Virus record (IMG/VR): IMGVR_UViG_3300018420_000018
Span: 1-60,935 of that record
Source: a virus
Taxonomy: Duplodnaviria; Caudoviricetes
Length of the DNA stretch: 60,935 nucleotides
Direction: 5' to 3' (one strand)
A program made the translations under genes and the position numbers. Shown here one piece after another: positions 1,460-29,715 of this stretch. Every line of letters starts with the position of its first letter. Position 1 is the first letter of the stretch. The notes under the pieces are model-generated. The model saw only the letters and a program-made list of their open reading frames with translations. It was not told the DNA's origin and made no database searches.

Positions 1460-1476
1460 TTTTTATTTCCTTTAAA

Positions 1477-2829: not shown

Positions 2830-2868
2830 TTTTTTCTCCTGTTTAGTTTCTAATTGAACTACTTAATT

Positions 2869-2876
2869 TATTTATA
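2869..2876 (-). promoter_or_regulatory. T4-type late promoter TATAAATA upstream of gp22
   Basis: Exact TATAAATA about 40 nt upstream of start; AGGA SD present. Confidence 0.75.
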
Positions 2877-2878
2877 TA

Positions 2879-3988: not shown

Positions 3989-3991
3989 TTA

Positions 3992-5521
3992 TTAAAATCT
4001 CCCAAAATCGTCTTCACTTTCTTCAGCGTCACCCTTTTCATCTTCAATTTGTTTGTCGATTATTTTGATATCTTCTTCAGATTGCATTAGAACATATTTT
4101 CTAACCCAGTCTTTTGAGTAATATCTACCAACATACTCTGATACTTGTCCGAGAGTATCTATTCTCTCTCTTAGTATCTCTGCATCCTTCAACTCTGTAA
4201 AGTGGTTGTCGGTTGCATAATTAAACTGCATGAATTCTTTGATTTTATCAAATTCTTCTACAGAGACAATTTCTTTAAGAACTAATTGAGTTCTAAGAAT
4301 GTCTATGAAAACTCTTGCAAACTTCTTCTGAAGTCTGTTTGTGAACTTATTAAACTTAAGTTCATCTCTATTAATTTCGGATGCACGACCCATGTTAAAA
4401 CCATTGTCTGCTTCCATTCTAGAAGATGGGACATTAAGAGATTGATATAACTTCTTCTTGAAGTATTCGATATCATCTATATCTGCAAGGTTTTGTCCAC
4501 CAGGCAGGGTAGTAATCTCTGTTCCTCTACCACCTTCTCTTCTAGGCAACCAAAAATCTTCCAACATACTCATATGTTTTCTATCATCTTTGATTTCACC
4601 TGTATCTGCATTGTAAACAAGTTTATTTCTATACTTGTTCATAACGTCTGCAAGATACTGTTCTGCTTTTGCTTTTGGAAGGTTTCCTACGTCAATGTAG
4701 AATATCCTTCTTTCAGGAGCACGTGAAATCCTATAGATTACAAGTGCATCTTCCATCATTGATAACTGATTTGCAGTCTTCAATGCTTTATGCAGATATC
4801 CGATTACAACATTCTTAGTGTAATCTAGTAAACCTGAAGTTGTATATGATACTGCTTCAGGTGCAATTTTAACTGTTGTTCCTTCCGATGCAGAAGATTT
4901 ATCAAATCCTCTGTCGTTGAACATGTAGAACTCTTCGACCTTTTTAATTCTTTCTATCTTTGTTTTAGGGTCTTTTTCTTTCTCTACGTTTCTAACTTTT
5001 TTAATCTTTAATGGGTCGATATTTCTTAAATCAACAATACCTAATTTAGGTCTTTTTGAGTCAACGACCTTATGGAAGTATATCCTTCCATCTACGTACC
5101 ATTTTCTGAATATTTCGTGAGAGTTCTGATTGAACTTCATCATTGATAAGATTAGATTAAACTCGTCTTGTATCTTGTTTTTGATACTATCAGAGAGTTT
5201 AACATCTCTGAGGTCGAGTGTCACAATCTTATCTGAAACATCAGATGTGATACACTCATTAACAATATCTTCAATTGCAGAGTCACACTCTGGCACTAAA
5301 GATGTTTCACGGTATCTACGAATGAGTTCTGCCTCATTTTTGATACCACCTTCCATATCAACAAAGGCACCATAGGCACCTCCTGCGATATATCCAGCCT
5401 GTTGCTGAATAACGGGAGTACCGTCATCATCAACTGGTGGCACGAATGACTTTGCATTCGGTGCCTCCAAATTTCTTAACTCGTCTTTTTTACGAGTGAT
5501 TTCAAACCCAAATAATTCCAT
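3992..5521 (-). CDS. gp20: Portal vertex protein
   Basis: YRISRAPERRIFYIDVGNLPK.KAEQY, EDFWLPRREGGRGTEITTLPGG. Confidence 0.98.
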   Translation of the reverse strand: MELFGFEITRKKDELRNLEAPNAKSFVPPVDDDGTPVIQQQAGYIAGGAYGAFVDMEGGIKNEAELIRRYRETSLVPECDSAIEDIVNECITSDVSDKIVTLDLRDVKLSDSIKNKIQDEFNLILSMMKFNQNSHEIFRKWYVDGRIYFHKVVDSKRPKLGIVDLRNIDPLKIKKVRNVEKEKDPKTKIERIKKVEEFYMFNDRGFDKSSASEGTTVKIAPEAVSYTTSGLLDYTKNVVIGYLHKALKTANQLSMMEDALVIYRISRAPERRIFYIDVGNLPKAKAEQYLADVMNKYRNKLVYNADTGEIKDDRKHMSMLEDFWLPRREGGRGTEITTLPGGQNLADIDDIEYFKKKLYQSLNVPSSRMEADNGFNMGRASEINRDELKFNKFTNRLQKKFARVFIDILRTQLVLKEIVSVEEFDKIKEFMQFNYATDNHFTELKDAEILRERIDTLGQVSEYVGRYYSKDWVRKYVLMQSEEDIKIIDKQIEDEKGDAEESEDDFGRF

Positions 5522-5526
5522 ACTAA

Positions 5527-5534
5527 TATTTATA
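5527..5534 (-). promoter_or_regulatory. Late promoter 5 nt before gp20 ATG
   Basis: TATAAATA-TTAGT-ATG. Confidence 0.75.
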
Positions 5535-5564
5535 CCACCAATTTGTGGTAGTATTCACAACTAA

Positions 5565-6062
5565 TTACTTAACTCTATCCCAGTGAGAGTATGAGAAAGT
5601 CACATCAAATGTTTCTAAAGCAGCAGCTTCGTCACTTGATAATGCGATATTTCCTATTACATTAGGGAATATATTAAAGAACTCATATCTCGCAAGAACA
5701 GAATCATCTTTATGCAATTGTTCTACAAATGCACGTGATAGTAGATAATCAGTGTTAAGAGCTGCATCTGTTGTTGTCAATGATGCAATATCTTCCTGCC
5801 ATGCTTCTAAAGCAGTTCTAGAAGAAAACTCTATGTCGTTTATCACTGTAATAGTCCAGTCATCAAAAGTTCTATCTCCTGCGAGTTTTAAATTTTGACC
5901 TCTGAAAGGTACAGAGATAACGTTGACATTAGCAGCAGGAATCTGAGCAGCAGTACATAGAAACTCTATCTTTTCACCACTTCTAGGTATAAAGACTCTG
6001 TATCTGTTTGCACGTGGGCCACCACCGATTAATTGTGCTTTAAATTGGTCTATTGTTGCCAT
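5565..6062 (-). CDS. gp19: Tail tube protein
   Basis: GGGPRANRY, LKLAGDRTFDDWTITVIND; follows sheath gene. Confidence 0.95.
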   Translation of the reverse strand: MATIDQFKAQLIGGGPRANRYRVFIPRSGEKIEFLCTAAQIPAANVNVISVPFRGQNLKLAGDRTFDDWTITVINDIEFSSRTALEAWQEDIASLTTTDAALNTDYLLSRAFVEQLHKDDSVLARYEFFNIFPNVIGNIALSSDEAAALETFDVTFSYSHWDRVK

Positions 6063-6075
6063 TTATATACTCCTG

Positions 6076-8094
6076 TTATACTGCACTATAAATTTCTTCA
6101 AACTCAACTCCTGACCTTGCGGCAACGAAGTTAAGAGTGATAAAGTTAATTGATTTAGCAGGTTTCACAAAGATTGAACATACAAACTCGTTTCTGTCTA
6201 TGACTGAATCAGTGTTGTTTGTTTCGTCACAAACTACTGAGAAGTCTACTAAACCTCTTCTGTTCTTCACATCTCTTAGGAAAGGTTCTACTGCACTTCT
6301 AAATTGAGCACGTGTAAATGCATCATTGAACTCAAATAATTGAGACTTAGCTGCAGTTGCGATTGCTTTCTCTAATACGATGAATAATCTTCTTACATTC
6401 ACTCTATCGAATGCAGAAGGACTTGTTAATGCAGTTTTATCTCCGAACAATACTGTTCCTTGACCTGCAAACGTCACTATTGGGTTGATTCTTGCACGGT
6501 ATAAGTCGTCTCTTGAAGACTTCTTAGGGTTAAATGCAAGTTTAGTGATTCCTAAATACTGACCTCTTGTGAAACCAGCAGGTGAGAACCATGCATCACT
6601 CAATAAGTCTGACCTCGCCATTATACCTGCAGTGTGTCCATTTCCTGGCACCCAACAATACTTATCGTTAAATCTATCGTATTGATATACCCAACCACTG
6701 TCTAATACTGCGTATGATGATGATGATACTGATGTGTAATCTGTTAAAATGTTAGAAACTTGAGTAGATTCTAATGAAACGTTTACTATTGATGATTTTC
6801 TAGGTGATGCAACAACCATACAGTCTTTTCTGTTTTCACAAAGTAATATTAACTCGTTTAATATTGTGTTGTGGTCTGCGACTATATCTTGTTCTGTTCC
6901 ACTACCATTATCAGTTCTTGCAGAACCCATGATGATTAATGAAACGTCTATTGTTTCTGCATCTCCGAAGTGTGTGTTATATGCATCTGTAATTTGACCT
7001 GCAGTTCCTATTCTTCCGTTTGCACCACCAGTTAATGATGTTGCTAAAGGTAAGTTAGGTAAACCGAATGCAGTTCCACCTGCTACTGTTGCAAGTGTTC
7101 TTGATTCTGTTGCAGATGCGTGAGTAGATGTTGAGTGTCCACTCCAATACACATAGTTTGAACTTCTTTGAATTACGTCTCTGTAGTAGTTTGAACGTCC
7201 TTGTTCATCTTTAGCGTCTGATGCAAGTGAAACGAAACCATATGTTTCTAACACTTCACCTGGCACACCTGAGATTGCACCATCTTCGTCAACAACGACT
7301 ATGTGTGCTTCGTCATTTGATGCATTAACTTTGACTGCGTTTGCAGATGACCCTGGCGCTTTATCGAATAAAGCGTAGTGTTTCCAATATCTATCGATAT
7401 TTACACCGTCACCAACTACTTGTACTAAACCTGTTTTTGTAGGTGTTCCTATAGTTTCTATAGTAATGTTCGCACCATCAGGTAAAGTTAAAACTTTATA
7501 CTCCTGACTATGTCCTGCGAATTTAATGATATCTCCAACTTGGAATACTGAAGAATCGTCAACTGGAATTGTAGATGTTCCTACTGCAAGGTCTACTGGG
7601 TTTGAATCACCGTCAACACTATTAGTTGCAGTGACAACGTCATTGAAATATGCGTTTGAAGAACCACAAAGTTCCACTCTTAGTGAATTACCTAATTCAC
7701 CACCATATTTTGATACCCATACACCTACTGTTGCAGCTTGTGAACCATCTCTATAGTCCTCTATATACTGTTCATTATTTTTTAATAATGTTGTAGATGA
7801 ACCAAGTGCATTAGCGGAATACAATCCTGTTGAATTTAATCTGACCACTCTCAATGAAGAACCATATTTTAAGAAAGATTCTGCAGTATAATAATCTTCT
7901 GAACCTGCATCTGTATTTGCAGGATTACCGAATACACTATTCAATCCTTTTGAATCTGAAACTGTTATTACTTCATCAACAGGGCCCCATTGAAATGAAC
8001 CAGCGAATGCACCTGTTGTCGATGAAACGGCTGGAACAACATTTGTAAGGTCAACCTCTTTGACCTGTACGCCTGGTGATACTTGAAATGCCAT
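6076..8094 (-). CDS. gp18: Contractile tail sheath protein
   Basis: SPGVQVKEVDLT, FQWGP, WFSPAG..RG, FDRVNVRRLF, FEFND. Confidence 0.97.
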   Translation of the reverse strand: MAFQVSPGVQVKEVDLTNVVPAVSSTTGAFAGSFQWGPVDEVITVSDSKGLNSVFGNPANTDAGSEDYYTAESFLKYGSSLRVVRLNSTGLYSANALGSSTTLLKNNEQYIEDYRDGSQAATVGVWVSKYGGELGNSLRVELCGSSNAYFNDVVTATNSVDGDSNPVDLAVGTSTIPVDDSSVFQVGDIIKFAGHSQEYKVLTLPDGANITIETIGTPTKTGLVQVVGDGVNIDRYWKHYALFDKAPGSSANAVKVNASNDEAHIVVVDEDGAISGVPGEVLETYGFVSLASDAKDEQGRSNYYRDVIQRSSNYVYWSGHSTSTHASATESRTLATVAGGTAFGLPNLPLATSLTGGANGRIGTAGQITDAYNTHFGDAETIDVSLIIMGSARTDNGSGTEQDIVADHNTILNELILLCENRKDCMVVASPRKSSIVNVSLESTQVSNILTDYTSVSSSSYAVLDSGWVYQYDRFNDKYCWVPGNGHTAGIMARSDLLSDAWFSPAGFTRGQYLGITKLAFNPKKSSRDDLYRARINPIVTFAGQGTVLFGDKTALTSPSAFDRVNVRRLFIVLEKAIATAAKSQLFEFNDAFTRAQFRSAVEPFLRDVKNRRGLVDFSVVCDETNNTDSVIDRNEFVCSIFVKPAKSINFITLNFVAARSGVEFEEIYSAV

Positions 8095-8136
8095 ACTTTT
8101 ACTCCTGTTAATGTAAAAAGTTAGTTTTACTTGATA

Positions 8137-8144
8137 TATTTATA
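8137..8144 (-). promoter_or_regulatory. Late promoter upstream of gp18
   Basis: Exact TATAAATA about 42 nt upstream; AGGAG SD present. Confidence 0.75.
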
Positions 8145-8170
8145 ACTTTAATAACTCTAACGAATATATT

Positions 8171-9757
8171 TTAAACAACTGTAAACCACCTATCCCCTGT
8201 AGAATCTACAAAAGTTTCTTGTTCTTCTTGTTGTTGAGACCCAAAAACCCCTGCAGGAAGAATATCATCCTCAATCAACTTCTGTTGTTCTGAGTATAAT
8301 AAGTCTTTTACTTTCTTATCAGTTAGATGGACAAAATAATCAGTAGTGATAAACCATGAAAATAATACACAATTCATAACCAAATCATCATTATAACCCC
8401 TATCTGCTTCATATGAGTTCCCTTTTATCACAAAGGTCATCATTTCAGTAATGGTTGCACGGTCTACAATCGTTAGTCTATTTTCTTCCGTAATTTCTTT
8501 TAATGTTGAACAACCTACTCTTTTAATTCGTTTGTTCATAGTCACACCAATATCTTCTGCCTTTGTTTGTCCTTGTGTAAAGACATTAGGGTACTCTATA
8601 TCATAGTGCAACTGTTGTGCGACCATAGCACCTTCTGCATTATTCTCTATTATTACAAGTGCTTCATTATATGGTCTTACATATTTATTAATTATGTCTG
8701 CCAACAACATAGGTGAAGTAGTGTTATCTCTATACACCAACACTTGTTCAAAAGGTTGATTTGTGACATCAAAAACTGTAAACGTAGAATAGTCTAGTCC
8801 TTTACCTTGTGATACGTCAACAGTACATATGTAAATATGATTATCTACTGGTCTCTTATATAGACTAATACCGTCTTTGACCCAATCGGATTCTATTGCT
8901 CTCATACCTAATAGTGTATTACTATTAATAAGTGTAGAACCCGTTCCTAAGAAAGAGTTTCCATACTCTTGTTCAAATTGTGCTTCTGAGGTATTTGCAA
9001 TGGTCTCTTTCTTCCATTCTTCGTCTCTGCCTGGCACATCATACCAGTTGATTGTGAATGATTTATACTCAGATTGTTCATGTATTGCAGATTCGTATAT
9101 CTTGTGAAACATATTACCTACACCGTTTGCAGTTGAGGTAATGATTACCTTCGAGTCTTTACCTGACGTGACCACGGGATATGTTGCAGTATAGAATGTC
9201 TCTGCATCGTCTACGAATGCGAACTCATCGAGATATAGTAAATTGATTGACATACCACGAATTGAACTTGAAGAAGTTGCGGCTGCAACAACTTTACTAT
9301 CATTTGCAAACTCAATCGAACCTTTGTTAAGAATCTTAACACCAGGCTGTAAAAAAAATGGTACACTTTCTAACATAGTGACAAGACGTGCAATCATTTC
9401 CCTTGCAATTGCACCTTTGTTTGCAAGTATAGCAACAGTCACTTCGGGGTGAAATAGTAGAAACCATAATAGGTATGCACAAGATGTAATTGATTTACCA
9501 CTCTGACGTGATGCAAGAACAACACTAAAACGAGATTGGTCATAGTGTTTTATTAGTTTATCTTGATAACCACGAAGTTTAAAAGGAACCATACCTTCGT
9601 CCAATGATATAATTTGCGTATAGTTTTCAATAAAATGACAGGGGTCATTAGAACACTTCATGTATTCATCTAACTGTTTCTTATCATATTGAACATCTAT
9701 TCCCGCTCTTTTTATGAGTGGATTACCTAGATATCCTTCGTTTTTATTTAGAGTCAT
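8171..9757 (-). CDS. gp17: Terminase large subunit
   Basis: YLGNP, Walker A SRQSGKS, Walker B LLYLDEFAFV, ITSTANG, nuclease DDLVM. Confidence 0.97.
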   Translation of the reverse strand: MTLNKNEGYLGNPLIKRAGIDVQYDKKQLDEYMKCSNDPCHFIENYTQIISLDEGMVPFKLRGYQDKLIKHYDQSRFSVVLASRQSGKSITSCAYLLWFLLFHPEVTVAILANKGAIAREMIARLVTMLESVPFFLQPGVKILNKGSIEFANDSKVVAAATSSSSIRGMSINLLYLDEFAFVDDAETFYTATYPVVTSGKDSKVIITSTANGVGNMFHKIYESAIHEQSEYKSFTINWYDVPGRDEEWKKETIANTSEAQFEQEYGNSFLGTGSTLINSNTLLGMRAIESDWVKDGISLYKRPVDNHIYICTVDVSQGKGLDYSTFTVFDVTNQPFEQVLVYRDNTTSPMLLADIINKYVRPYNEALVIIENNAEGAMVAQQLHYDIEYPNVFTQGQTKAEDIGVTMNKRIKRVGCSTLKEITEENRLTIVDRATITEMMTFVIKGNSYEADRGYNDDLVMNCVLFSWFITTDYFVHLTDKKVKDLLYSEQQKLIEDDILPAGVFGSQQQEEQETFVDSTGDRWFTVV

Positions 9758-10154
9758 CTTGTTTTGATTTCTTTAGAAACTTTTGCAATTCTGAAGTTGA
9801 ACCAACATATAAGTGATTGTGTTGTGTTTTTACACTTCCGTTTTCGTCTTCTAACTTCTTTAATTTGGTTTGAACGTCTAATAATTTCTCTGCAGTCTCG
9901 CCTACGGTCTTTATTAACTGACCTGCAACTTCGTATGCACGAGGGTTTTCCGTCTCCCTACAAACGTCTAAGATACCGTCAATCGCATCTTGTCCTCTTT
10001 CAACAAGACCGTATAAGTTCTCTCTAGTATATTTGTAATCAGTCTGTATATTATCAGATTGAGGGGGTTTTTTGATTACTTGTGTAGTCTTCTCTTTTAT
10101 TTCAGAGGAGATATCCAAGACATCATTTAATTTTGAATCTATATCTTTTGTCAT
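9744..10154 (-). CDS. gp16: Terminase small subunit
   Basis: DYKYTRENLY, PRAYEVAGQLIK, VGSTSELQKFL. Confidence 0.93.
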   Translation of the reverse strand: MTKDIDSKLNDVLDISSEIKEKTTQVIKKPPQSDNIQTDYKYTRENLYGLVERGQDAIDGILDVCRETENPRAYEVAGQLIKTVGETAEKLLDVQTKLKKLEDENGSVKTQHNHLYVGSTSELQKFLKKSKQDDSK

Positions 10155-13209: not shown

Positions 13210-13914
13210 TTAATCGGTTATAATGTCTCCATTTGGACGAATGTTATAGACAAATTCATCATCATTATAATTGTTTATATTACCACTATGTCCATCAGGT
13301 GAAGTGTACTTCATTTCGATATTGAAGGAAATACTATATCTATCTTTTTGAGTAGGATTTGGTTCAACCATATGCATGAGACCACTTGGAAATAAAATAA
13401 GTTTACCACTTCTTGGTTCAAATCCTTTACTTGTTGCAGTTCTAGGTGAGTTTGGAAAATCTGCAACTACTTTTGGATGAGTGTCAATCATTTCTATATG
13501 ACCTTCATCACCGTCTGCCTTTATATAAAACACACCACTATACCAACAACCATTGTGTAAGTGTGGTTTGTTCCATGCAAGGTGGTCATTAATATTCGCC
13601 CATGAATTACCGATATGCATTTGTGCTTTGTGTCGGTCTAATCCATGGAAAGGCCATACTTCGTCATAGAATGTAGTTTGTATTCTATTCATTAATTTTT
13701 GAAATGCAGGATTAGACTCACAACCATCATGTGATTGCCATCCAGTATATGCATTTGAAAGTTTTCTACCTTGTGGGTCTTTTCTTCTCATACCATCCAT
13801 AGTATCTACAAGAAGGTCTAAGTAGTTTTGGTCTATTCCACGGTTTTCATCTAGATTGGAGTCTAGTAAATCTCTTTCAAATACGTAAGTTGGAAATAAT
13901 AATCTAACGGACAT
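13210..13914 (-). CDS. 2OG-Fe(II) oxygenase (TIGR02466-like); start reassigned to MSVRLLFPT
   Basis: LFPT start, SWANIN, H-x-H (PHLH), SGVFYIK, LILFPS.L.H.V.PN, RYSISFN. Confidence 0.85.
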   Translation of the reverse strand: MSVRLLFPTYVFERDLLDSNLDENRGIDQNYLDLLVDTMDGMRRKDPQGRKLSNAYTGWQSHDGCESNPAFQKLMNRIQTTFYDEVWPFHGLDRHKAQMHIGNSWANINDHLAWNKPHLHNGCWYSGVFYIKADGDEGHIEMIDTHPKVVADFPNSPRTATSKGFEPRSGKLILFPSGLMHMVEPNPTQKDRYSISFNIEMKYTSPDGHSGNINNYNDDEFVYNIRPNGDIITD

Positions 13915-14794
13915 CGAAATCAAACTCCAATTGTGTCTCTTCTGATTCTTCTTTATTGTGAAAAGGACATTCAGGTGGTGGTGAATCTTCCTTATATAGT
14001 TTACCTTTCGGTTTCCAATATCCTCTTCTACGATATGCACCAAATTCCTTTACACTATTTTCATCAAATTCTGTTAATTGACTCCACTCTTGCATAGATT
14101 TATTAGTTGGAACTGTTCTATCAAACTCTGAAGTTCCAGTTGCACGATTGTCTATCCAAGATTTATGTGTATTTACTATATAGGATGCATTCCATTTTTC
14201 TCTTTTATATGGTATAATTTGACAAAGTGGAGTTCCCTTTGGTATTACAAAAGAGTGGTCTACTTTCGGATAAAATATAATTTGTGCATTATCCATACCA
14301 ACATTAAAAGTGTCGGTATCGATTATACCCTGCCAACATGCAAAGTGATTATTTTGAAATAAAAATGGGTCTAAGTAAAAACAAGAATAACCTTCAGGTG
14401 TTTTGATATTCCATGGGTTTCTCATTTTAAATGCATCTTTAATTGGTTTGTCTTCACCCAAATATTCAAATGCATCTAAAGTTTGGGTAATAGGGTGACT
14501 TGAGGAGTTATAACCACTATCGTGTGGGTCATAAGTTGCAAAGGTTTTTTTACCTTTATCGTCTCCACCTATACCATTTATTACATGTATATCTCTATTT
14601 GATAAAAGTATCCAACCACTCTTTAACCAATCGTCCATTGCAGGACATGAACGTATAGTTTGTTGAACCATACCTCTAGTGAGTTCTCCTGCCTTTGCAC
14701 GTTTCCACCAATCAGGCTGAATAGAACTTGCAAGGACTGGTTTAAAGTCCCTTAATGTTTCTTTATTATATGTGTGAAACTCTATCGTTGGCAT
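13904..14794 (-). CDS. Conserved phage hypothetical protein (DUF6065-like), often found beside 2OG oxygenases
   Basis: P.WWK, RSCPAMDD, FKMRNPW.IKTPEGYS, GIIDTD, IPKGTPL.QIIP motifs. Confidence 0.6.
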   Translation of the reverse strand: MPTIEFHTYNKETLRDFKPVLASSIQPDWWKRAKAGELTRGMVQQTIRSCPAMDDWLKSGWILLSNRDIHVINGIGGDDKGKKTFATYDPHDSGYNSSSHPITQTLDAFEYLGEDKPIKDAFKMRNPWNIKTPEGYSCFYLDPFLFQNNHFACWQGIIDTDTFNVGMDNAQIIFYPKVDHSFVIPKGTPLCQIIPYKREKWNASYIVNTHKSWIDNRATGTSEFDRTVPTNKSMQEWSQLTEFDENSVKEFGAYRRRGYWKPKGKLYKEDSPPPECPFHNKEESEETQLEFDFDVR

Positions 14795-15485
14795 GAAAAA
14801 ATTCTTCCTCGTCTACTAATCTTACTTCGTCTCCTCGTAAAACTAGAGACCTTCTATCAATATATCTTGCAGATGATGTGGGTGCATCTGCACCATGTGG
14901 TATTCTACCATCAAATATAATCAACCTGTTTGGTTTAAATTCTATTTCTGCAATTTGGTGGTTTTCAATATGTTCTTGTCTACCGTCTAAACCTTGTTGC
15001 ATTTCATTATATAGTCTTAATTTACCACCCCAATTTTTATTCCAAAATTTATTAGTGTAATATAAGAATGATAAATTCCACTCATCTTCATCTTGACAAT
15101 CTGCGTGAGTTGTTCCTTGTAAACCTTGAGTTTGAGAATTAAGTCCCATATATTGAAATCTTACCCACTTAAATCCAAACTCAGTTTGCAATCTTCTGTT
15201 TAGATAATATGGAAATATAGTATGGAGTTTATCCATATCTTTTTCTAATTTCATACCATCTCTGAAATAAGTTGCACCCCAAAAACTATGGTGAGGTAAA
15301 CCTGTAGGACTTCCACTACTGACTTGATTAGTCTTAGACCATATATTTTCTCTTACAATGTAATCGTCAAAATGATGATGTAGTTCGGTTGCAAGATAAT
15401 TATCTAAGACATAGACATCTTTAAGAGGTAAGTCTTTTATTTTGAAGGGTTCATCGATATGAACAACTTTTACGTCATCAAACAT
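14766..15485 (-). CDS. 2OG-Fe(II) oxygenase, prolyl-4-hydroxylase-like
   Basis: H-x-D (THAD), LYY...W..NWGG.L, FKPNRLIIFDG.IPH, distal R-x-S. Confidence 0.85.
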   Translation of the reverse strand: MFDDVKVVHIDEPFKIKDLPLKDVYVLDNYLATELHHHFDDYIVRENIWSKTNQVSSGSPTGLPHHSFWGATYFRDGMKLEKDMDKLHTIFPYYLNRRLQTEFGFKWVRFQYMGLNSQTQGLQGTTHADCQDEDEWNLSFLYYTNKFWNKNWGGKLRLYNEMQQGLDGRQEHIENHQIAEIEFKPNRLIIFDGRIPHGADAPTSSARYIDRRSLVLRGDEVRLVDEEEFFHANDRVSHI

Positions 15486-15488
15486 ATA

Positions 15489-16046
15489 CTACCTTTCATG
15501 GTCGGGTAGTAATGATGCCTGAGGTAATTGATTTAGATAATCTTGTATTGGTTTTAAATGGTCTTCTCTAGTTGCAAAAATTTCATTTACTAATTGGTCG
15601 TAGATTACATATTGTGAATCTGCAAACTCTAGTACTCTTCTTGCATTAGACCTATATGGGTGATTTGAACCTTCTCTACCTGCAAACGTGACTTCAGTTA
15701 AATCATCAAATCCATAGTTATCAAGAAAATTTGCAATATTACCTTTTACTTCGTCAACTAAGTCTTGTACATATTGATTGTTTAATGTGACTCCTGCAGG
15801 AGGTTCAGAATTTTCAATATAGTTTTCTATAATTTCTTTTTCAGGATTTGTTAATGGTCTTTTGACTTGGTCATCAAAACATTTATCATCATCCCATTTT
15901 TCAATTACGATTTCTATATCATCGTATACTAATACATCAAAATCAAAACCTAGTTCAGGTTGGTCTGTATTATCAAACTCGTATTGTAAACCATTAGGTT
16001 TTCTAATAATAAGTTTTTGGTCTTCCGTGTAAATTAGTGCGTTCAT
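15489..16046 (-). CDS. Hypothetical acidic protein, possibly fibre-assembly chaperone; start probably MNALIYT
   Basis: ORF with host-type promoter just upstream of ATG 16046; function inferred from context only. Confidence 0.55.
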   Translation of the reverse strand: MNALIYTEDQKLIIRKPNGLQYEFDNTDQPELGFDFDVLVYDDIEIVIEKWDDDKCFDDQVKRPLTNPEKEIIENYIENSEPPAGVTLNNQYVQDLVDEVKGNIANFLDNYGFDDLTEVTFAGREGSNHPYRSNARRVLEFADSQYVIYDQLVNEIFATREDHLKPIQDYLNQLPQASLLPDHER

Positions 16047-16052
16047 ACTGTT

Positions 16053-16081
16053 ATTATACCTCAATATTGATTAAATTACAA
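16053..16081 (-). promoter_or_regulatory. Sigma70-like promoter TTGTAA-N17-TATAAT
   Basis: Perfect -10, near-consensus -35, 17-nt spacer; ATG 6 nt after -10. Confidence 0.65.
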
Positions 16082-17653
16082 GGGTAATTTATCTTTTACT
16101 CTCTTGTAGTATTCTAAATTATTTATGCGACTAGAATCCATCCCATCTATCCAAGGGCCTCCTCTAGTGTAGTGAACTGCAGAGAAATCCCATTTTACTT
16201 CAGGGTCATCATATCCTTCAACAAAAATATACTTTTCAGGTATTGGAGATATCTTATCAGTCCATTCAAACTGATGTAATTGAGCACCAGTCCAAGTGTT
16301 CACAACTTCAGGTGTAAGTTTTCTACAATCCTCATGACCATTGTTAAAGAACATCATAGAAGACCACAACTTACATGGGTAATCTATATTCACTTCACCA
16401 TCAAACTTAGTTTCATCGTGTTTCATTTGTGGATACTTAATACATGCAACTGCATCATCTGTATTTAAATAATAGAACATAGGAAGTAGAGATTTGTTAA
16501 AGATAAAATCATCATCTATAAACATACTAAATCCTTCGTAGTTCTCTAAATATGGAATTAAAAATCTACTGTATGTAAACCATGTTGATTGATTTGCATA
16601 TGGTCTTGTATATTCAGGAATTTTTGATACATCTAAAAATTTAATTTCAGGTACAAACTTATTGTAGTCTACAAATCTACCTCCTCCGATAGATTTTTGT
16701 ATACTATCTAAAATAGATTCTTTACATACTTGTTCTAAACCATTGTGTCTACTATCATATCCGATGTAGATGTTTAGTGGTTTACCTTTAGATAATTTTG
16801 TGACTTTCTCACTATGTTCCCAAACATACTTTCTAAAATCTACATTACTGAAATCGACTTGAAACTCTATGGTACCCATTGTCCATATTGCAGACAATCC
16901 TTTATACTTTGGTTTTCTTTTACCATTTAATACTTTATCTTTCCAGTATTCTAAACATTCCTTGACACCGATTGGTTCTGCAGGTATAATATCATGTGTA
17001 TCCCATAATAGTAATTCATGATTAGGGTCTTCCATTTCCTCAAAACAACCTGACCTTACAGAGCCTGGGTGAATCATTAATTGTATTCTATCACCCGAAC
17101 TTTGTGTAAGACCTTGTATAGGTGCCCATAAACCTTCTTCTTGAATACTCTGTATCAACCAATGTCCTTTTGCACTATGATAATACATAGAGTTCAATGC
17201 AATTGGAAAATCTTCTGCATCAAAATCACCCGACTGCAATTCTTCTCCTGCATAGTCTTTTATATCAACCTCTTTATCTGTTAAAGGTTCTGATACTGCA
17301 AATTTAGTAGAGGGAGCACCATGTTCGTTGATAGAACCTGATGTATAAATTTCGGGTAAGAATCTATGATATGAGTTTGCTTGGAATCTTAAACCTTGCC
17401 ATCCTATTAGTTCACCACTTCTTCTTAAAGGTTCTAAATCAGACCACTTACATAACTTAAGGGGAGGCATGTTTTCAAACATGTATTCTAGAACTTTTAT
17501 AAATTCTGAATCATAATCGATATTTTCTAAATTATCTAATTGACCTAAATGCCACTGGTCTAAGTCTCTTCTTTCCTTATGATTAAGGTCTTTGAATGAC
17601 TCGGGAAATGTTAAAAATTGTTTAGTTTGCTCTAGAGTTTTGAGTTTGTCCAT
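16076..17653 (-). CDS. Two-domain protein: unknown / ParB-like N-terminus plus GT-A (GT8/CDI-like) glycosyltransferase
   Basis: IYIGYDSR, STWFTYSRFLIPYL, DxD (FIDDDFIF), KLWSSMMFFN, HYTRGGPW. Confidence 0.8.
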   Translation of the reverse strand: MDKLKTLEQTKQFLTFPESFKDLNHKERRDLDQWHLGQLDNLENIDYDSEFIKVLEYMFENMPPLKLCKWSDLEPLRRSGELIGWQGLRFQANSYHRFLPEIYTSGSINEHGAPSTKFAVSEPLTDKEVDIKDYAGEELQSGDFDAEDFPIALNSMYYHSAKGHWLIQSIQEEGLWAPIQGLTQSSGDRIQLMIHPGSVRSGCFEEMEDPNHELLLWDTHDIIPAEPIGVKECLEYWKDKVLNGKRKPKYKGLSAIWTMGTIEFQVDFSNVDFRKYVWEHSEKVTKLSKGKPLNIYIGYDSRHNGLEQVCKESILDSIQKSIGGGRFVDYNKFVPEIKFLDVSKIPEYTRPYANQSTWFTYSRFLIPYLENYEGFSMFIDDDFIFNKSLLPMFYYLNTDDAVACIKYPQMKHDETKFDGEVNIDYPCKLWSSMMFFNNGHEDCRKLTPEVVNTWTGAQLHQFEWTDKISPIPEKYIFVEGYDDPEVKWDFSAVHYTRGGPWIDGMDSSRINNLEYYKRVKDKLPL

Positions 17654-17688: not shown

Positions 17689-18657
17689 TTAAGAAGATAT
17701 AGGTGTTCCTGGCCATGATTGTTGTAATGCACCATCCCATCTAATCACTGGTGTTCTACCTTGTCTAGCATACGTTGCAGGTTGTCTGTTCTGATATGTA
17801 AACGGTGTTTGACCTTGTCTTGCATATGTACCAGGCTGTCTGTTTTGATACGTAAACGGTGTTCTACCTTGTCTTTCATATGTACCAGGCTGTCTGTTCT
17901 GATATGTAAACGGTGTTTGACCTTGTCTTTCATATGTACTAGGTTGTCTGTTCTGATATGTAAACGGTGTTTGTGCATTCACTGGATTCTGATATGTTCC
18001 AGGCTGTCTATTCTGATAAGTGAATGGTGTTTGTGCATTCACTGGATTCTGATATGTTCCAGGCTGTCTATTCTGATATGTGAAAGGAGTTCTACCTTGT
18101 CTTGCATATGTACCAGGCTGTCTGTTTTGATACGTAAACGGTGTTCTACCAGTTCTTTGATATGTACCAGGCTGTCTGTTTTGATACGTAAACGGTGTTC
18201 TACCAGTTCTTTGATATGTACTAGGTTGTCTGTTCTGATACGTAAATGGAACACGATAAGATACTGGATTTCTATAAGTAAATGGTGACCTATTATTATA
18301 TGTAAACGGTATCTGATAGGATACTGGGTTTCTATAAGTGAATGGTGACCTATTCTGATATGTAAAAGGTAATTGGTATCCTACAGGGTTTCTATATGTA
18401 AAAGGAGACCTTGCGTTATATGTGAACGGTAATTGGTATCCTACAGGGTTTCTGTATGTAAATGGTGACCTATTATTATATGTAAAAGGTTGTCTCGCAT
18501 TCGCAATGTAAGGTACACGATATGTAAATGGTACCCTATAAGTGGAAGGTTGTCTTGCGTTGGCAATATATGGTACTCTATAGGTAAAGGGAACCCTATA
18601 CGTAGAAGGTTGTCTCGCATTTCCTATATTTGGTACTTGATAATTTCCTATTGCCAT
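17689..18657 (-). CDS. PFTY-repeat protein, short partner of pair A (putative fibre strand)
   Basis: 322 aa, of which 294 aa are 18/20-aa tandem repeats; starts MAIG. Confidence 0.85.
   Translation of the reverse strand: MAIGNYQVPNIGNARQPSTYRVPFTYRVPYIANARQPSTYRVPFTYRVPYIANARQPFTYNNRSPFTYRNPVGYQLPFTYNARSPFTYRNPVGYQLPFTYQNRSPFTYRNPVSYQIPFTYNNRSPFTYRNPVSYRVPFTYQNRQPSTYQRTGRTPFTYQNRQPGTYQRTGRTPFTYQNRQPGTYARQGRTPFTYQNRQPGTYQNPVNAQTPFTYQNRQPGTYQNPVNAQTPFTYQNRQPSTYERQGQTPFTYQNRQPGTYERQGRTPFTYQNRQPGTYARQGQTPFTYQNRQPATYARQGRTPVIRWDGALQQSWPGTPISS
17752..18633 (-). repeat. Coding tandem repeat array with 54/60-nt units
   Basis: Units such as PFTYQNRQPGTYxRQGxT and PFTYNNRSPFTYRNPVGYQL with synonymous variation. 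Confidence 0.95.
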
Positions 18658-18668
18658 TTAAATTATTC

Positions 18669-18971
18669 CTAGGTTATTTCCTTTAAAATTCCTCTTATGT
18701 CTCTATATTTGTTTTCTATAGTTCTCTGACCTTCAGGCATTTCATCTATAGGATAATAATATGATTCTCTGATAATATCGTTTGCAATCAAAGCTTCATG
18801 AGTTTGTAGTGCTTCTGTTGCAGACTCCATATCGACATCTGAACCCACTGTAAAATTAGTTAAATTTATTTTTAAGTCTAATTCATAATCAACACCATTT
18901 ACAGTAATCTGATTTAAAGGATTACTTTGAAGGTATTGTATTCCGTTTTCTGTAATTATTTCTACTGACAT
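18669..18971 (-). CDS. Hypothetical 100-aa protein between the pair A repeat genes
   Basis: ORF with GAGGA SD, tightly packed between neighbours. Confidence 0.7.
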   Translation of the reverse strand: MSVEIITENGIQYLQSNPLNQITVNGVDYELDLKINLTNFTVGSDVDMESATEALQTHEALIANDIIRESYYYPIDEMPEGQRTIENKYRDIRGILKEIT

Positions 18972-18988: not shown

Positions 18989-20533
18989 TTAATAAAGTGC
19001 TAACGACATTGGTTGATACGAACCTGCAACATAACTTGGGAACGAAGAACTTGGTATAGTCCATGTATAATATTTGGTTCCTGCATATGGGTTTGTACTT
19101 GCAGTTCCTGATGAAAGTGGTAATGTCGTTGTTGTGTTTGGTAAACTCAATACAAAATAAGTTGCACTAGGGAAATCTTGAGCAAAATCATACTGACCAC
19201 TTAAACCAGTTGCCTTATACGTCATTTCTCCAATTGTTAGGGTAGATGTAGATGCACTGCCTGGACTTTGTCTAATAACCCACTCACCAGCACCATATAT
19301 TGATATAGGTGGTGCAGGACTTTGCGGCCATGTTCCTGCGAATCCTAATGGGCCATATCCATAAGGTGCGGCTGGGTATCCTGTTGAAAACCCATACCTT
19401 GCAGTACCAGTATAACTCGAAGGTTCTACATTAGAAGTCACACTATAAGGCCCCCATAGTATTGGGTCGGGATATGGGTAAGTACCAGGCGACCTAAAAC
19501 TATACGTAAATGGTGATTGTGAGTTTGCAGGATATCTTGCATTCGCAGGATACCTTGCGTTATACGTAAATGGTGATTGTGCATTTGCAGGATACCTTGC
19601 ATTTGCAGGATACCTTGCGTTATACGTAAATGGATTCTGACCATTTGCAATGTAAGGTTGTTGTGCAGAAACAGGGTTTCTATACCCTCTTGGTGTTCTT
19701 GCATTCGCAATATAAGGTTGTTGTGCGTTTACTGGATTTCTATACCCTCTTGGTGTTCTAGCGTTTGCAATGTAAGGTTGTTGTGCAGAAACTGGATTTC
19801 TATATCCTGCAGGTTGTCTTGCGTTTGCAATGTAAGGTTGTTGTCCGTTTACTGGATTTCTATATCCTGCAGGTTGTCTTGCGTTTGCAATGTAAGGTGA
19901 TTGTGCATTCGCAATATATGGATACGGTTGCTGTGCATTTGCAATATATGGTGTTTGACTGTTAGCAATATATGGATACGGTTGTTGTGCATTCGCAATA
20001 TATGGGGTCTGACTGTTCGCAATGTATGGATATGGTTGCTGAGCATTAGCGATATATGGCGTTTGACTATTTACTGGATTCCTATATGTACTAGGTTGTC
20101 TTGCTTGTGCAATATAAGGAGTCTGACTATTTACTGGATTCCTATATGTACTTGGTTGTCTTGCATTCGCAATATATGGTGTTTGTGCATTAGCAATATA
20201 AGGGTATGGTTGCTGTGCATTAGCGATATAAGGAGTCTGACTATTCGCAATATAAGGGTACGGTTGTTGAGCGTTTGCGATATAAGGTGTCTGACTATTT
20301 GCGATGTAAGGATATGGTTGTTGAGCGTTTGCAATATATGGGGTCTGACTGTTTGCAATATATGGGTATGGTTGTTGAACAGATTGTTGACCCGATGCAT
20401 TATTCCACCCTGTTGGTGTTTTTACATAAATTTGGTCAACTGCTTTCCATGTTGTAGAACCAGTTTTTACCCACCCACCTTGAGTTGAACTCCAACCCGA
20501 AGGTGTTTTTACTTTTTGTGACCCTGTCGCCAT
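18989..20533 (-). CDS. PYIAN-repeat protein, long partner of pair A: N-terminal adaptor, 294-aa array, C-terminal globular domain
   Basis: Three xVKT..W hairpin motifs at N-terminus, 20 PYIA motifs, C-domain shared with 28435..29715. Confidence 0.85.
   Translation of the reverse strand: MATGSQKVKTPSGWSSTQGGWVKTGSTTWKAVDQIYVKTPTGWNNASGQQSVQQPYPYIANSQTPYIANAQQPYPYIANSQTPYIANAQQPYPYIANSQTPYIANAQQPYPYIANAQTPYIANARQPSTYRNPVNSQTPYIAQARQPSTYRNPVNSQTPYIANAQQPYPYIANSQTPYIANAQQPYPYIANSQTPYIANAQQPYPYIANAQSPYIANARQPAGYRNPVNGQQPYIANARQPAGYRNPVSAQQPYIANARTPRGYRNPVNAQQPYIANARTPRGYRNPVSAQQPYIANGQNPFTYNARYPANARYPANAQSPFTYNARYPANARYPANSQSPFTYSFRSPGTYPYPDPILWGPYSVTSNVEPSSYTGTARYGFSTGYPAAPYGYGPLGFAGTWPQSPAPPISIYGAGEWVIRQSPGSASTSTLTIGEMTYKATGLSGQYDFAQDFPSATYFVLSLPNTTTTLPLSSGTASTNPYAGTKYYTWTIPSSSFPSYVAGSYQPMSLALY
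18990..19474. repeat. Direct repeat copy 1 (about 485 nt) encoding the shared C-terminal domain
   Basis: Aligns with 28436..28923, with identical tracts of about 105, 83 and 61 nt. Confidence 0.95.
19514..20395 (-). repeat. Coding tandem repeat array with 54/60-nt units
   Basis: Units PYIANAQQPYPYIANSQT and PYIANARQPxxYRNPVxxQx. Confidence 0.95.
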
Positions 20534-26911: not shown

Positions 26912-27160
26912 CTAGAATGTTCCACCATCTATAGAAGTGGTGGTTGTCCATTTGTCTGTTTCTGCATCATAAGATAATAATCCATCGTCTGTTTCAGATG
27001 CATTTACGTCTGCAAGTTCGTTGATAGATTTTGCAGATAAGTTTACACTTGATGAAGTGTTTCCAATTGCAACCTGTTTTGCACGAATATTAGTTGCACC
27101 TGCAATTCTAGCACCTACTGAACCTGTTGCTCTGTTTAATGTTCCTTTAATGTTTGACAT
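26912..27160 (-). CDS. Small fibre-associated protein ending IDGGTF
   Basis: L.DV.....DGLL.YD....KW motif typical of phage fibre repeats. Confidence 0.7.
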   Translation of the reverse strand: MSNIKGTLNRATGSVGARIAGATNIRAKQVAIGNTSSSVNLSAKSINELADVNASETDDGLLSYDAETDKWTTTTSIDGGTF

Positions 27161-27166
27161 AATTCT

Positions 27167-27499
27167 TTACCTCGTCACACCAGGCGTCACTATAGCTTGT
27201 CCTTCTATTACTCTACTAGTGCTTCCACCTGAACTAGTTATATTCAAATCATATACATATCTTCCACCTGATAGACCTGAAGTTTGTGTATCAGTAAGTG
27301 ATAATGTCACTTGACCATTTACCTCTGAAATAGAAGTTGCAAATGTTTCAGATACAGTTGAAGAACTATAAGTTTTTCTAATTTGTGCTGATGCAGTATA
27401 ACCTGATAGGTTTAAAACGTCACCAGCAGAATCAGTCACATCTACTGTAATACTGTAATCTGTTCCTTGGTCTATGTATAAATTTGCAATAATCGCCAT
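27167..27499 (-). CDS. Small virion protein, BppU-like Ig domain
   Basis: NLYIDQGTD, LSGYTASAQIRK, LSLT..QT..L..GRYVYD, RVIEG...V.PGVT. Confidence 0.75.
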   Translation of the reverse strand: MAIIANLYIDQGTDYSITVDVTDSAGDVLNLSGYTASAQIRKTYSSSTVSETFATSISEVNGQVTLSLTDTQTSGLSGGRYVYDLNITSSGGSTSRVIEGQAIVTPGVTR

Positions 27500-27517: not shown

Positions 27518-28426
27518 TTAACCCTTATTAAATTGTGCAGTTGGTACTGATTGGTGAATTTTCTCTAACGTACCACTATCATTTACATAAATTTCTTCCA
27601 CTTTCTCTACTGTTCCATTATTATTTCTAAACACACCTTTTACCTTTGCAATCGGGCCAACTGTTCTAGTTGTTGTGTATGGTTGTTGATACACATAGTT
27701 TTGTTGGAAACTATAAGGTGATTGATAAGGATTCTGATATATACTTGGTTGTCTCGCATTCGCAATATAAGGATTTTGATACGTAAACGGATGTTGATAT
27801 AAACTTGGTGTCCTATTCTGATACGTTTGAGGAGTCCTTAAAGGTGTTGCAAAAGAATATGATGCTTGTCTCTGATAGGTAAAAGGAGTTCGACCTTGTC
27901 TTGAATACGTACTAGGTTGTTGTGCAATAAACGGATACGGTTGTTGTAAATTTGCAATATATGGATATGGTTGTTGTGCATTCGCAATGTATGGATACGG
28001 TGCTTGTGCAATGTATGGATACGGTTGTTGTGCATCAGCAATATACGGATACGGTTGTTGTGCCTGTGCAATAGGTGTAGTTGCAGGTCTCCTTGCAATA
28101 TAAGGATACGGTACTTGTCCTTGATTTATAAACGGATATGGTTGTCTCGCTTGTGCAATATACGGATAACTTGCTTGTGCAGATGCAATGGGTCTTGTTG
28201 CAGGGTTTTGTTTATTTGCTTGATACGAAACTTGTGCAATCGCAGGTTGTCTTGCAGGTTGTTGGAAAGTTGCAATATATGGTTGTTGCGTTGTTGCAGG
28301 GTATTGAACATTAATAGGCTGTCTTCTTATTTCTTGAGTATTGATTGGTTGTTGTGAAGGTTGCCTAAACCCATACGGCACTTGGTAAGTGTATATGTAA
28401 GGTTGTTGTGTTTGTCCTATTGCCAT
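27518..28426 (-). CDS. Pro/Tyr/Gln repeat protein, short partner of pair B
   Basis: Starts MAIG; about 255 aa of degenerate PYPYIA/PFTY repeats; C-terminal VFRNNNGT..IYVNDSGT hairpins. Confidence 0.85.
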   Translation of the reverse strand: MAIGQTQQPYIYTYQVPYGFRQPSQQPINTQEIRRQPINVQYPATTQQPYIATFQQPARQPAIAQVSYQANKQNPATRPIASAQASYPYIAQARQPYPFINQGQVPYPYIARRPATTPIAQAQQPYPYIADAQQPYPYIAQAPYPYIANAQQPYPYIANLQQPYPFIAQQPSTYSRQGRTPFTYQRQASYSFATPLRTPQTYQNRTPSLYQHPFTYQNPYIANARQPSIYQNPYQSPYSFQQNYVYQQPYTTTRTVGPIAKVKGVFRNNNGTVEKVEEIYVNDSGTLEKIHQSVPTAQFNKG

Positions 28427-28434
28427 ATCTTATC

Positions 28435-29715
28435 CTAATAAAGTGTTAACGACATTGGTTGATACGAACCTGCAACATAACTTGGGAACGAAGAACTTGG
28501 TATAGTCCATGTATAATATTTGGTTCCTGCATATGGGTTTGTACTTGCAGTACCACTCGCTAAAGGTAAAGTTGTTGTTGTGTTGTTAGGTAAACTCAAT
28601 ACAAAATAAGTTGCACTAGGGAAATCTTGAGCAAAATCATACTGACCACTTAAACCAGTTGCCTTATACGTAAGTTCTCCAATTGTTAAAGTCGAGGTAG
28701 CGGAGGAGCCTGGACTTTGTCTAATAACCCACTCACCAGCACCATATATTGATATAGGTGGTGCAGGAGATTGTGGCCATGTTCCTGCGAATCCTAATGG
28801 GCCATATCCATAAGGTGCGCCTGGGTATCCTGTACTAAATCCGTATCTTGCAGTACCAGTATAACTTGAAGGTTCTACATTAGAAGTCACACTATAAGGC
28901 CCCCATAGTATTGGGTCGGGATACGTATATGGTGTAGGTTGTCTTCCAACTATAGATGCAGGCTGTTGTGCAATCACTGGGTGTTGATAACTTGTTTGTG
29001 CAATTACAGGGTGTCTATAGGTTGTTTGTGCAATCGATGGGTGTCTATAACTTACACTTACCTGATGAGTATATTCTGCAGGATGTCTATATGATGCTTG
29101 ATAATCAGTACTTACCTGATGAGTGTATATTGTAGGGTGTTGGTAAGACTGTTGAAAACTATAAGGTTCACGTCCTTGTCTTGCATATGTAAAAGGTTGT
29201 TGACCTGTATCGTTAAAGTTGTAAGGTTGTGTTCCTTGTGTTGCATATGGTTGTTGAAAACTTTGTTGAAAACTATAAGGTGAACGTCCTTGGTGTGCAT
29301 ATGTAAAGGGTGTTCTACCTTGTGCAATGTAAGGAGTTTGACCTTGTCTTGCGTATGTGAAAGGTGTTCTTCCAGTTGCATTATAGATTACTGGACTTCT
29401 TCCAGTCACCTGAATTGTAGTTTGTGCATTTGCAATGTATGGGTATGCTTGTTGTGCAGATGCAATATAAGGATAGTTTGCAGTCGCTTGAACTATAGAT
29501 GGTATTTGTCTATTTGCAATATAAGGTGTTTGTGCAGAACTAGGTTGTCTTGCATTTGCAGGTTGTCTCGCTTGATAAGTAAAAGGAGTTTGTGCGTTTG
29601 CAGGTTGCCTTGCAATATATTGTGCAATTACAGGTGAACGACCTTGTGCAAGTCCCTGTCCTTGGTAAGGTTGTTGGAACGAAGTTCCTATATTTACATA
29701 AATTTCATCAGACAT
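28435..29715 (-). CDS. Pro/Tyr/Gln repeat protein, long partner of pair B, with shared C-terminal domain
   Basis: MSDEIYVNIG start, about 254 aa of repeats, 162-aa C-domain nearly identical to that of 18989..20533. Confidence 0.85.
   Translation of the reverse strand: MSDEIYVNIGTSFQQPYQGQGLAQGRSPVIAQYIARQPANAQTPFTYQARQPANARQPSSAQTPYIANRQIPSIVQATANYPYIASAQQAYPYIANAQTTIQVTGRSPVIYNATGRTPFTYARQGQTPYIAQGRTPFTYAHQGRSPYSFQQSFQQPYATQGTQPYNFNDTGQQPFTYARQGREPYSFQQSYQHPTIYTHQVSTDYQASYRHPAEYTHQVSVSYRHPSIAQTTYRHPVIAQTSYQHPVIAQQPASIVGRQPTPYTYPDPILWGPYSVTSNVEPSSYTGTARYGFSTGYPGAPYGYGPLGFAGTWPQSPAPPISIYGAGEWVIRQSPGSSATSTLTIGELTYKATGLSGQYDFAQDFPSATYFVLSLPNNTTTTLPLASGTASTNPYAGTKYYTWTIPSSSFPSYVAGSYQPMSLTLY
28436..28923. 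repeat. Direct repeat copy 2 of the shared C-terminal domain
   Basis: Aligns with 18990..19474, one extra codon. Confidence 0.95.

Follow-up and report, generated by a model that had tools for sequence, protein, structure and literature searches.

The viral record IMGVR_UViG_3300018420_000018, which derives from an uncultured marine T4-like phage and was analysed here over its whole length of 60,935 bases (hereafter the window; estimated completeness 34%), carries on its minus strand two pairs of repeat-rich genes, pair A and pair B, each encoding a long and a short protein (Table 1). A first-pass annotation of the window had proposed that the two proteins of pair B, of 426 and 302 amino acids (aa), pair antiparallel by the same repeat code as those of pair A. 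Both open reading frames (ORFs) of pair B and every motif named in that annotation were found where it had placed them. We delimited the repeat arms by three landmarks set independently of it, namely the point where the N-terminal motif ends, the junction motif DPILWGP and the point where the C-terminal motif TTRTVGPIAKVK begins, and obtained 246 aa for the arm of long B and 251 aa for that of short B, slightly below the lengths claimed (about 254 and 255 aa). The arms differ between the pairs of this one genome, those of pair A measuring 306 and 305 aa. As had also been noted, both short proteins begin with MAIG and the two long proteins share their C-terminal domain, with 94% identity over 169 aa.

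Table 1. Features of the two gene pairs and of the small genes next to them. The names of the parts (arm, tip, proximal) follow the proposed hairpin model.
Feature	Coordinates	Strand	Description
Long A, 514 aa	18989..20533	-	N-domain aa 1-49; N-arm aa 50-355 (306 aa); tip aa 356-514
Long A tip domain	18992..19468	-	
100-aa acidic ORF	18669..18971	-	between long A and short A
Short A, 322 aa	17689..18657	-	C-arm aa 1-305, then C-terminal motif RWDGALQQSWPGTPISS
Long B, 426 aa	28435..29715	-	ORF with N-terminal motif, N-arm and tip domain; homologues in 43 viral loci
Long B aa 1-20, proximal motif MSDEIYVNIGTSFQQPYQGQ	29656..29715	-	15/20 residues are invariant columns among 11 aligned relatives
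Long B aa 21-266, N-arm, 246 aa	28918..29655	-	Pro-delimited units, mostly of 6, 8 or 10 aa
Long B aa 267-426, tip domain	28438..28917	-	from junction motif DPILWGP; 94% identical to long A tip
Short B, 302 aa	27518..28426	-	C-arm and proximal C-terminal domain; starts 8 nucleotides past the long B stop
Short B aa 1-251, C-arm	27674..28426	-	two odd-length units (13 and 11 aa), each starting at a PATxPIA motif
Short B aa 252-302, proximal C-terminal domain	27521..27673	-	TTRTVGPIAKVKGV...EEIYVNDSGTLEKIHQSVPTAQFNKG; conserved in split and fused relatives
110-aa LtfC-like protein	27167..27499	-	directly downstream of pair B
82-aa protein	26912..27160	-	after the B locus in 41/43 loci

The arms were cut into units at prolines at least 6 residues apart, and the unit boundaries of the long arm were compared with the reversed boundaries of the short arm at all offsets (tolerance 1), with 2000 shuffles of the unit order. 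In pair B, 19 of the 26 boundaries coincided in the antiparallel orientation, which was the global maximum over offsets and was reached by 2/2000 shuffles (p = 0.001); the parallel orientation gave 16/26 (p = 0.07). Fourteen of the 27 long-arm units faced a unit of equal length in reverse order. The residue sum, obtained by adding the position at which a long unit starts to that at which the facing short unit ends, was 270 for long units 38-63 and 108-155, 269 for 156-173 and 268 for 194-259. The register that the annotation had put near a sum of 272 was thus recovered at 268-270, as a parameter-dependent peak that was kept in 9 of 12 settings. The run of 10-10-8-10-residue units at long B 108-145 (PVIYNATGRT at 108, PFTYARQGQT at 118, PYIAQGRT at 128 and PFTYAHQGRS at 136) faced, as proposed, the run at short B 125-162 (PYPYIADAQQ at 125, PYPYIAQA at 135, PYPYIANAQQ at 143 and PYPYIANLQQ at 153). 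The PYSFQQS motifs of long B (146 and 184) and the PATxPIA motifs of short B (PATTPIA at 114, PATRPIA at 75) likewise occupied the positions claimed for them, PYSFQQSFQQ (146) being opposite PATTPIAQAQQ (114).

In pair A, 40 of the 41 boundaries were mirrored, and 39 of the 42 units had a partner of the same length opposite them, always with a residue sum of 357 (the register being defined to within one residue); the cross-correlation of proline indicators gave z = 11.3, a value reached by 0/500 shuffles. The presence of the pattern in both pairs, which had been presented as an independent recurrence within one genome, does not count as such because A and B are paralogues, with tips that have been homogenised. 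Taken alone, the sequences of pair B make only a moderate case for antiparallel pairing.

A scan of IMG/VR yielded 43 related viral loci, in which the A and B loci each consist of a single gene (N-arm, centre, C-arm), as in many of them, or of two genes divided at the centre. The fused B-type proteins (443-611 aa, for example 488 aa in L028, 484 aa in L034 and 470 aa in L048) start with M[AS]DEIY... like long B and end in ...KIHQSVP.AQF.. like short B, and the fused A-type proteins (457-469 aa; L043, L048 and L050) have a long A-like start and a short A-like end. The centre of the fused forms is occupied by a short motif (EPELNSW, EPEIDPYW; consensus [DE]P..W(GP)) that corresponds to the start of the tip in the window (YPDPILWGP) and to the start of unrelated domains elsewhere (PLDQSWGP...). 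The long and short proteins of the window are collinear with these fused homologues in their N-terminal, junction and C-terminal motifs. Since the fused relatives carry the N-terminal motif of the long chain and the C-terminal motif of the short chain in a single ORF, the window pairs are, as judged from this collinearity, genes split at the centre just after an inserted tip domain. The earlier remark, which placed MAIG next to where the C-terminal domain of the long chain begins, fits such a split.

The break at the centre takes several forms among the relatives. Some lineages are split without a tip domain, the A-type long chain ending in poly-Gly and a few residues. Elsewhere a poly-Gly run placed exactly at the hairpin centre leads into a Hint/intein-like domain that terminates the A-type long chain (L029:18304-19716, L030:18351-19655, L034:17128-18414, L041:18756-19976 and L044:8899-10101), with the pattern ...GGGG-CF..GT...TGGHP...HN and a further 4-16 aa. 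The domain of L030 matched PF14890 with 45.1 bits (cut-off 35.8), and the Hint matches in L029, L034, L041 and L044 were sub-threshold; Hint-type Pfam domains were also present in 22 among the 120 short B relatives listed. Self-cleavage seems likely in these proteins, rather than classical splicing, since HN is followed by a residue other than Cys, Ser or Thr. In L041 (18175-19976), L044 (8318-10101) and L046 (9995-11778), the short A gene comes before the long A gene, the opposite order to that of all other loci, so that a fused reading is impossible there.

Co-variation of the two arms was found across this family. In 30 distinct split pairs, the arm lengths were correlated with r = 0.987 (slope 0.955, mean difference 4.4 aa, range 173-310 aa), and this was the case for both A-type (n = 16, r = 0.988) and B-type pairs (n = 14, r = 0.998); the shortest arms, of about 173-178 aa, belong to pairs of the L044/L041 type. 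The antiparallel boundary count reached p<=0.05 in 28/29 distinct pairs; it was higher than the parallel count in 26 of the 29, equal to it in 3 and never lower (for example 36/37 boundaries in L009 A, 35/36 in L038 A and 22/22 in L021 B). We also aligned the N-arms and the C-arms of relatives separately, in 22 comparisons with at least 55% identity, and considered N-arm insertions or deletions (indels) of at least 4 aa. A same-size partner was present at the mirror position for 26 of the 47 N-arm indels, versus 7/47 at the parallel position. Between window A and L009 A, the N-arm indels (position,length) were (81,12)(137,8)(157,10)(235,2)(244,2) and those of the C-arm, in mirror coordinates, (82,12)(141,8)(156,10)(234,2)(243,2). 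The indels were mirrored in 3/3 cases between L021 A and L030 A, and when window B was compared with L015 B, each of the two arms had insertions of 10 and 4 aa close to the junction.

The types of the facing units followed a rule as well. Among facing 8-mers, a PYIA-type unit met an xxY-type unit 140 times (94 + 46 by orientation), with 1 PYIA/PYIA and 3 xxY/xxY cases. When unit identities were permuted among equal-length positions, 188 like-type facing pairs were expected (standard deviation 9.6, lowest null value 149) and 37 were observed. The pairing of PYPYIA with TYxRQG units, proposed from the two pairs of the window, thus holds up as a family-wide rule in which PYIA-type units face xxY-type units. 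Taken together, the co-variation of lengths, units, indels and types supports a model in which the N-arm and the C-arm would run ANTIPARALLEL in register.

The two proteins could instead be serial segments of a conventional fibre, like T4 gp36/gp37, each forming a parallel homotrimer, with the split merely separating collinear pieces. This arrangement would agree equally well with the order of the genes, their fibre-rich surroundings and the existence of fused forms, and phage fibres are commonly parallel trimers, but it provides no reason for the length matching, for the unit-by-unit mirroring or for the compensation of indels at mirror positions, and we consider it improbable. Slightly less probable in our view is an arrangement in which the arms do not touch each other and are each aligned along a common third component of fixed polarity. 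Length matching and mirroring indeed constrain the geometry and not the identity of the contact partner; however, this component would need to have changed its length together with the arms in every lineage (173-310 aa), and direct contact accounts more simply for the fused forms with a short centre and for the complementary units. A mirror at the nucleic-acid level, through an inverted DNA duplication or an RNA hairpin over both genes with the protein pattern being secondary, would agree with the long open frames that run on the opposite strand across the repeats (see below). The search for long DNA inverted repeats over both gene pairs gave only imperfect arms of 14-32 nucleotides with 72-93% complementarity, so the mirror pattern is not a DNA palindrome, and the opposite-strand translations are unrelated to the repeats of the partner. 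This last explanation is largely refuted and we give it hardly any weight.

Several results weigh against antiparallel pairing or against the tests that favour it. The unit definition and the landmarks are heuristic. For pair B, the boundary test gave p<0.05 in only 6 of 12 settings (p 0.07-0.12 at tolerance 0), the proline-indicator cross-correlation was insignificant (z = 1.1, a value reached by 72/500 shuffles) and the unit-type rule was powerless in this pair alone, with 1 like-type pair observed for 1.01 expected. The swapped combination of the B N-arm with the A C-arm reached 21/26 boundaries, at an off-register shift of -45, and cognate and swapped partners of pair B were separable by arm length only. 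Within the family, two pairs had unequal arms (251/265 in L033 and 291/273 in L039), 21 of the 47 indels had no mirror partner, which is partly due to the difficulty of placing gaps in repeats, and some comparisons had no mirrored indels (0/4 for L033 and L042, 0/2 for L009 and L021). The self-mirror signal of the fused forms was significant (p<0.05) in only 10/17, in a test whose method partly forces the peak to be central, and the comparisons among relatives lack phylogenetic independence. All in all, we give a probability of about 0.7 to the reading in which the antiparallel pair of long and short chain forms the stalk of a fibre whose tip is distal; the paired system proposed by the first-pass annotation is supported by the comparative evidence from relatives, and less by pair B itself. 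The details of the beta-ribbon and the oligomeric state of the stalk, discussed below, are less certain than the pairing.

The arms also exhibited a strict two-residue alternation. The spacing from one proline to the next was even in 1835 of 1860 cases (58 distinct arms). In the arms of window A, all prolines fell on one parity (49/49 in the N-arm and 40/40 in the other arm) and all aromatic residues on the other parity (46/46 in the N-arm and 56/56), and the same was true for the N-arm of long B (27/27 prolines, 34/34 aromatics). In short B the parity slips twice, at the odd-length units that start at the two PATxPIA motifs. One face is composed of Y/F/A/G/V and the other of P/Q/N/R/T/I; the arms are nearly free of acidic residues and of Lys, and Arg is abundant. 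Given this unbroken alternation over 250-300 residues, the arms are most likely extended beta-strands that form an amphipathic two-stranded ribbon. In a beta-strand, the residues of one parity direct their backbone NH and CO groups to one edge, so that, with prolines restricted to one parity, pairing would be possible at the opposite edge alone. This favours a ribbon of two strands and no more. Its amphipathic character in turn suggests that ribbons could oligomerise and bury the aromatic face. With the standard rise of 3.3-3.4 Å per residue, the stalk would be roughly 80-85 nm long for pair B and roughly 100 nm for pair A.

Structure prediction did not recover such a ribbon. Both predictors left the arms unstructured, with a predicted local distance difference test score (pLDDT) of about 30. 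AlphaFold2 modelled the arms of the fused relative L042 as coil (mean pLDDT 35.9), and its only strands were one at aa 5-9 and four at aa 448-480 (pLDDT 53-68). These strands would agree with a small sheet formed jointly by both ends of the chain, an agreement that we do not take as evidence. The complex prediction for long B and short B had a score of 0.00 with an uncertain fold of the partner, which neither supports nor opposes binding. Unstructured arms would be expected if the proteins were independent, intrinsically disordered and of low complexity, for instance sticky surface decorations, and if the mirror arose from shared repeat ancestry and chance; the strong composition bias and the weakness of some pair B tests point the same way. 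Shared ancestry, however, predicts collinear rather than mirrored similarity, and disorder and chance both leave unexplained the strict parity over 250-300 residues, the scarcity of like-type facing units and the same-size mirrored indels. We rate this explanation about as unlikely as alignment along a third component.

If the long and short chains do pair antiparallel, the system could be organised as follows. The single chain encoded in many related phages consists of a proximal N-terminal motif, an N-arm, a central junction, a C-arm and a proximal C-terminal domain. In the lineage of the window, the junction motif is followed by a globular and fast-evolving tip domain, after which a stop codon with a new start (MAIG) divides the chain at the turn into the long and the short protein. 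The arms would then lie side by side and antiparallel, each Pro-delimited unit of 6, 8 or 10 residues opposite a unit of equal length and complementary type (PYIA-type versus xxY/RQG-type), with the tip domain at the distal turn, and the proximal end would bring together the start of the long chain and the end of the short one. The ribbons would probably oligomerise, burying their aromatic face; that they do so as trimers is a guess based on other phage fibres. The sequence EIYVN followed within three residues by G[TS] occurs at both ends of pair B (long B aa 4-11, within 29656-29715, and short B aa 278-286, within 27521-27682, minus strand), ends that would adjoin in the hairpin. A shared proximal domain of three motifs, suggested by eye, was dropped since BLASTP detected no similarity between the N-domain of long A and the C-terminal domain of short B. 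The latter domain had a weak match to phrog_13729 (E = 2.6e-4).

The tip domain was 23-36% identical to the tips of relatives, versus about 60-76% for the arms, and a search of 1.84 billion representative proteins gave seven matches to it. In other lineages its place is taken by tip cassettes unrelated to it; when the window-type tip was compared with the L021-type tip by hhalign (probability 0.3%), only the junction motif was matched. The near-identity of the A and B tips within the window, together with their divergence from relatives, points to concerted evolution or gene conversion between the two tip loci. The C-terminal tails of the A and B tips also match within the genome of each relative (e.g. 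...SIALF in both tips of L012 and L013). With its near-identity between A and B, its divergence from relatives, its few homologues and its replacement by unrelated domains, the tip appears to behave as a receptor-binding cassette. AlphaFold2 predicted the tip with a mean pLDDT of 46.3 and beta structure only in the C-terminal ~95 aa (pLDDT 50-76), and Foldseek, run with this model, recovered nothing in the PDB at E<=0.001 (template modelling scores up to 0.30).

None of the four pair proteins was above threshold for any Pfam, PHROG or NCBIfam family, and PDB sequence searches gave no relevant match. A tblastn search with long B, short B, the C-terminal domain of short B and the N-domain of long A against 50,697 GenBank phage records, a set that may lack records of the window's own genome, gave no match with the low-complexity filter on. 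The family nevertheless comprises at least 247 protein clusters in public metagenomes at E<=1e-5, and among the 120 clusters listed all are unnamed or annotated as "hypothetical protein". Short B itself is listed in the ESM Atlas, though with no model, and the cluster nearest to it was an unnamed 484-aa viral family (score 0.78). We found no description of the family in the literature, nor the three repeat motifs as strings, supplementary files being outside this search.

The best parallel among known systems is the needle domain D11 of T4 gp37, for which PMC6957217 describes two stem segments of 50 residues each (882-931 and 960-1009) around a tip of 28 residues (932-959). As in the proposed hairpin, the chain runs out and back, equal stem arms flank a receptor-binding tip and both ends are proximal (PMC6957217). 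Both systems are encoded in the fibre region of a T4-like phage, and the stem-tip-stem layout is found here in the equal arms that flank the centre (246/251 and 306/305 aa) and in the N-arm, centre and C-arm of the fused relatives. The gp37 stem is, in three dimensions, trimeric with six antiparallel strands. However, the stem arms of gp37 are 50 aa long, versus 173-310 aa in the new family, in which alone we see Pro-delimited complementary units of 6/8/10 aa and a frequent cut of the chain at the tip. We detected no sequence or profile similarity to T4 gp37 in the pair proteins of the window, and the HxH iron motifs of the gp37 stem were not found in the sequences of pair A or pair B (the A arms contain no His, the N-arm of B has 8 and its C-arm has 1).

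Fibres of the T2/S16 type consist of gp37 and of a separate adhesin, gp38, that caps the tip. They resemble the present pairs in that the distal fibre is made from adjacent genes and has a hypervariable receptor-binding part, but the short chain here would run along the whole stalk to the base instead of capping the tip. The Hint/intein-like domains (PF14890, PF01079, PF14623) break the A chain of relatives where the window has a stop codon; the corresponding profiles had no match in the pair proteins of the window, which carry another tip domain. The shafts of other viral fibres, such as the triple beta-spiral of adenovirus and the octapeptide beta-helix of T4 gp5 (PMC3004832), share short beta repeats, regular Pro/Gly and a long thin shape, but they are parallel homotrimers of one type of chain, without two mirrored, length-matched and complementary chains. 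A collagen-like triple helix was rejected, Gly making up only 3-7% of residues and the units of 6/8/10 aa having an even periodicity.

The pairs most likely represent a kind of host-recognition fibre not described before. We put forward more tentatively, as a reading that may well not hold in full, an undescribed architecture in which 170-310 residues of two chains, or of a single hairpin chain, are zipped together antiparallel by a unit-by-unit code. The code would consist of equal unit lengths, of PYIA-type units facing xxY-type units and of prolines on the outward parity, yielding exactly two strands and a stalk of tunable length. In this same tentative reading, the break at the distal turn would be functionally wanted and achieved in three ways, by gene splitting, by a tip cassette with a stop codon or by a self-cleaving Hint domain after poly-Gly; where a Hint domain is involved, the thioester that results might even allow the chains to be ligated to each other.

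What is new here is that the pairs appear as halves of a hairpin gene split at the turn, with mirror-image co-variation of their arm lengths, unit lengths, unit types and indels. For pelagimyophage-like marine phages, whose tail fibres have so far been beyond homology detection (PMC7029224), the family provides a pair of candidate fibres in each genome, both of them with clearly recognisable stalk and tip, and a simple route to predicting which tip goes with which stalk. The mirrored, length-matched and complementary repeats constitute a natural experiment in the co-evolution of two long beta-strands, with a readable pairing rule that is open to testing with short peptides or mini-hairpins. 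The repeated break of the chain at the turn, by gene split or Hint domain, bears on the folding of long hairpins and on the swapping of receptor-binding cassettes.

The window encodes a T4-like structural module, nearly all of it on the minus strand, with major capsid, portal, sheath, tube and terminase genes at 164-10154, the baseplate genes gp8, gp6, gp25, gp5 and gp53, and also gp32 and gp59. Its capsid protein shares 64-65% identity with the capsid proteins of Methylophilales phage Melnitz and of Pelagibacter phages Mosig and HTVC008M. Both gene pairs sit among fibre-like genes, between the gene of a 2218-aa DUF4815/VrlC-like protein and the neck genes, and each comes after a conventional fibre-like gene (603 aa and 723 aa, phrog_697); the gene order around both pairs is conserved across the 43 related loci. 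The corresponding region of pelagimyophages was named "host recognition cluster", with tail fibres that are not identifiable by homology (PMC7029224). The position of the genes points to the pairs encoding a receptor-binding fibre of the virion.

The small proteins next to the pairs have unequal distributions. The 110-aa LtfC-like protein, found at the same spot after the B locus in 40/43 loci, matched phrog_1084 (E = 3.7e-29) and phrog_3304, "L-shaped tail fiber protein assembly" (E = 7.3e-23), and reached E = 1.1e-3 with PF23926, below the family cut-off. This protein and the 82-aa protein that follows it are 52-87% identical among loci, a higher conservation than that of the arms. The 100-aa acidic ORF of pair A is present in 6/43 loci, in all of which the A-type long chain has a tip domain, and is evolving fast (36-42% identity); it has no family match in Pfam, PHROG or NCBIfam, and it could be an assembly chaperone specific to the tip.

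The repeats are also covered on the plus strand by long open frames of 115-195 aa (17761-18288, 19901-20488, 27971-28357 and 29290-29637), and regions of positive local guanine-cytosine (GC) skew lie at 18-20 kb and 28-30 kb. Both features look like by-products of the codon composition of the repeats rather than genes. Directly downstream of pair A (13210-17653, minus strand) we observed a 525-aa protein with a weak GT8-like match, present after the A pair in 22/43 loci, two 2OG-Fe(II) oxygenase genes (PF13640 and PF13759) and a 296-aa phrog_7084 protein. These proteins might hydroxylate or glycosylate the Pro/Asn/Tyr-rich arms, or modify the host surface as proposed for pelagimyophages.

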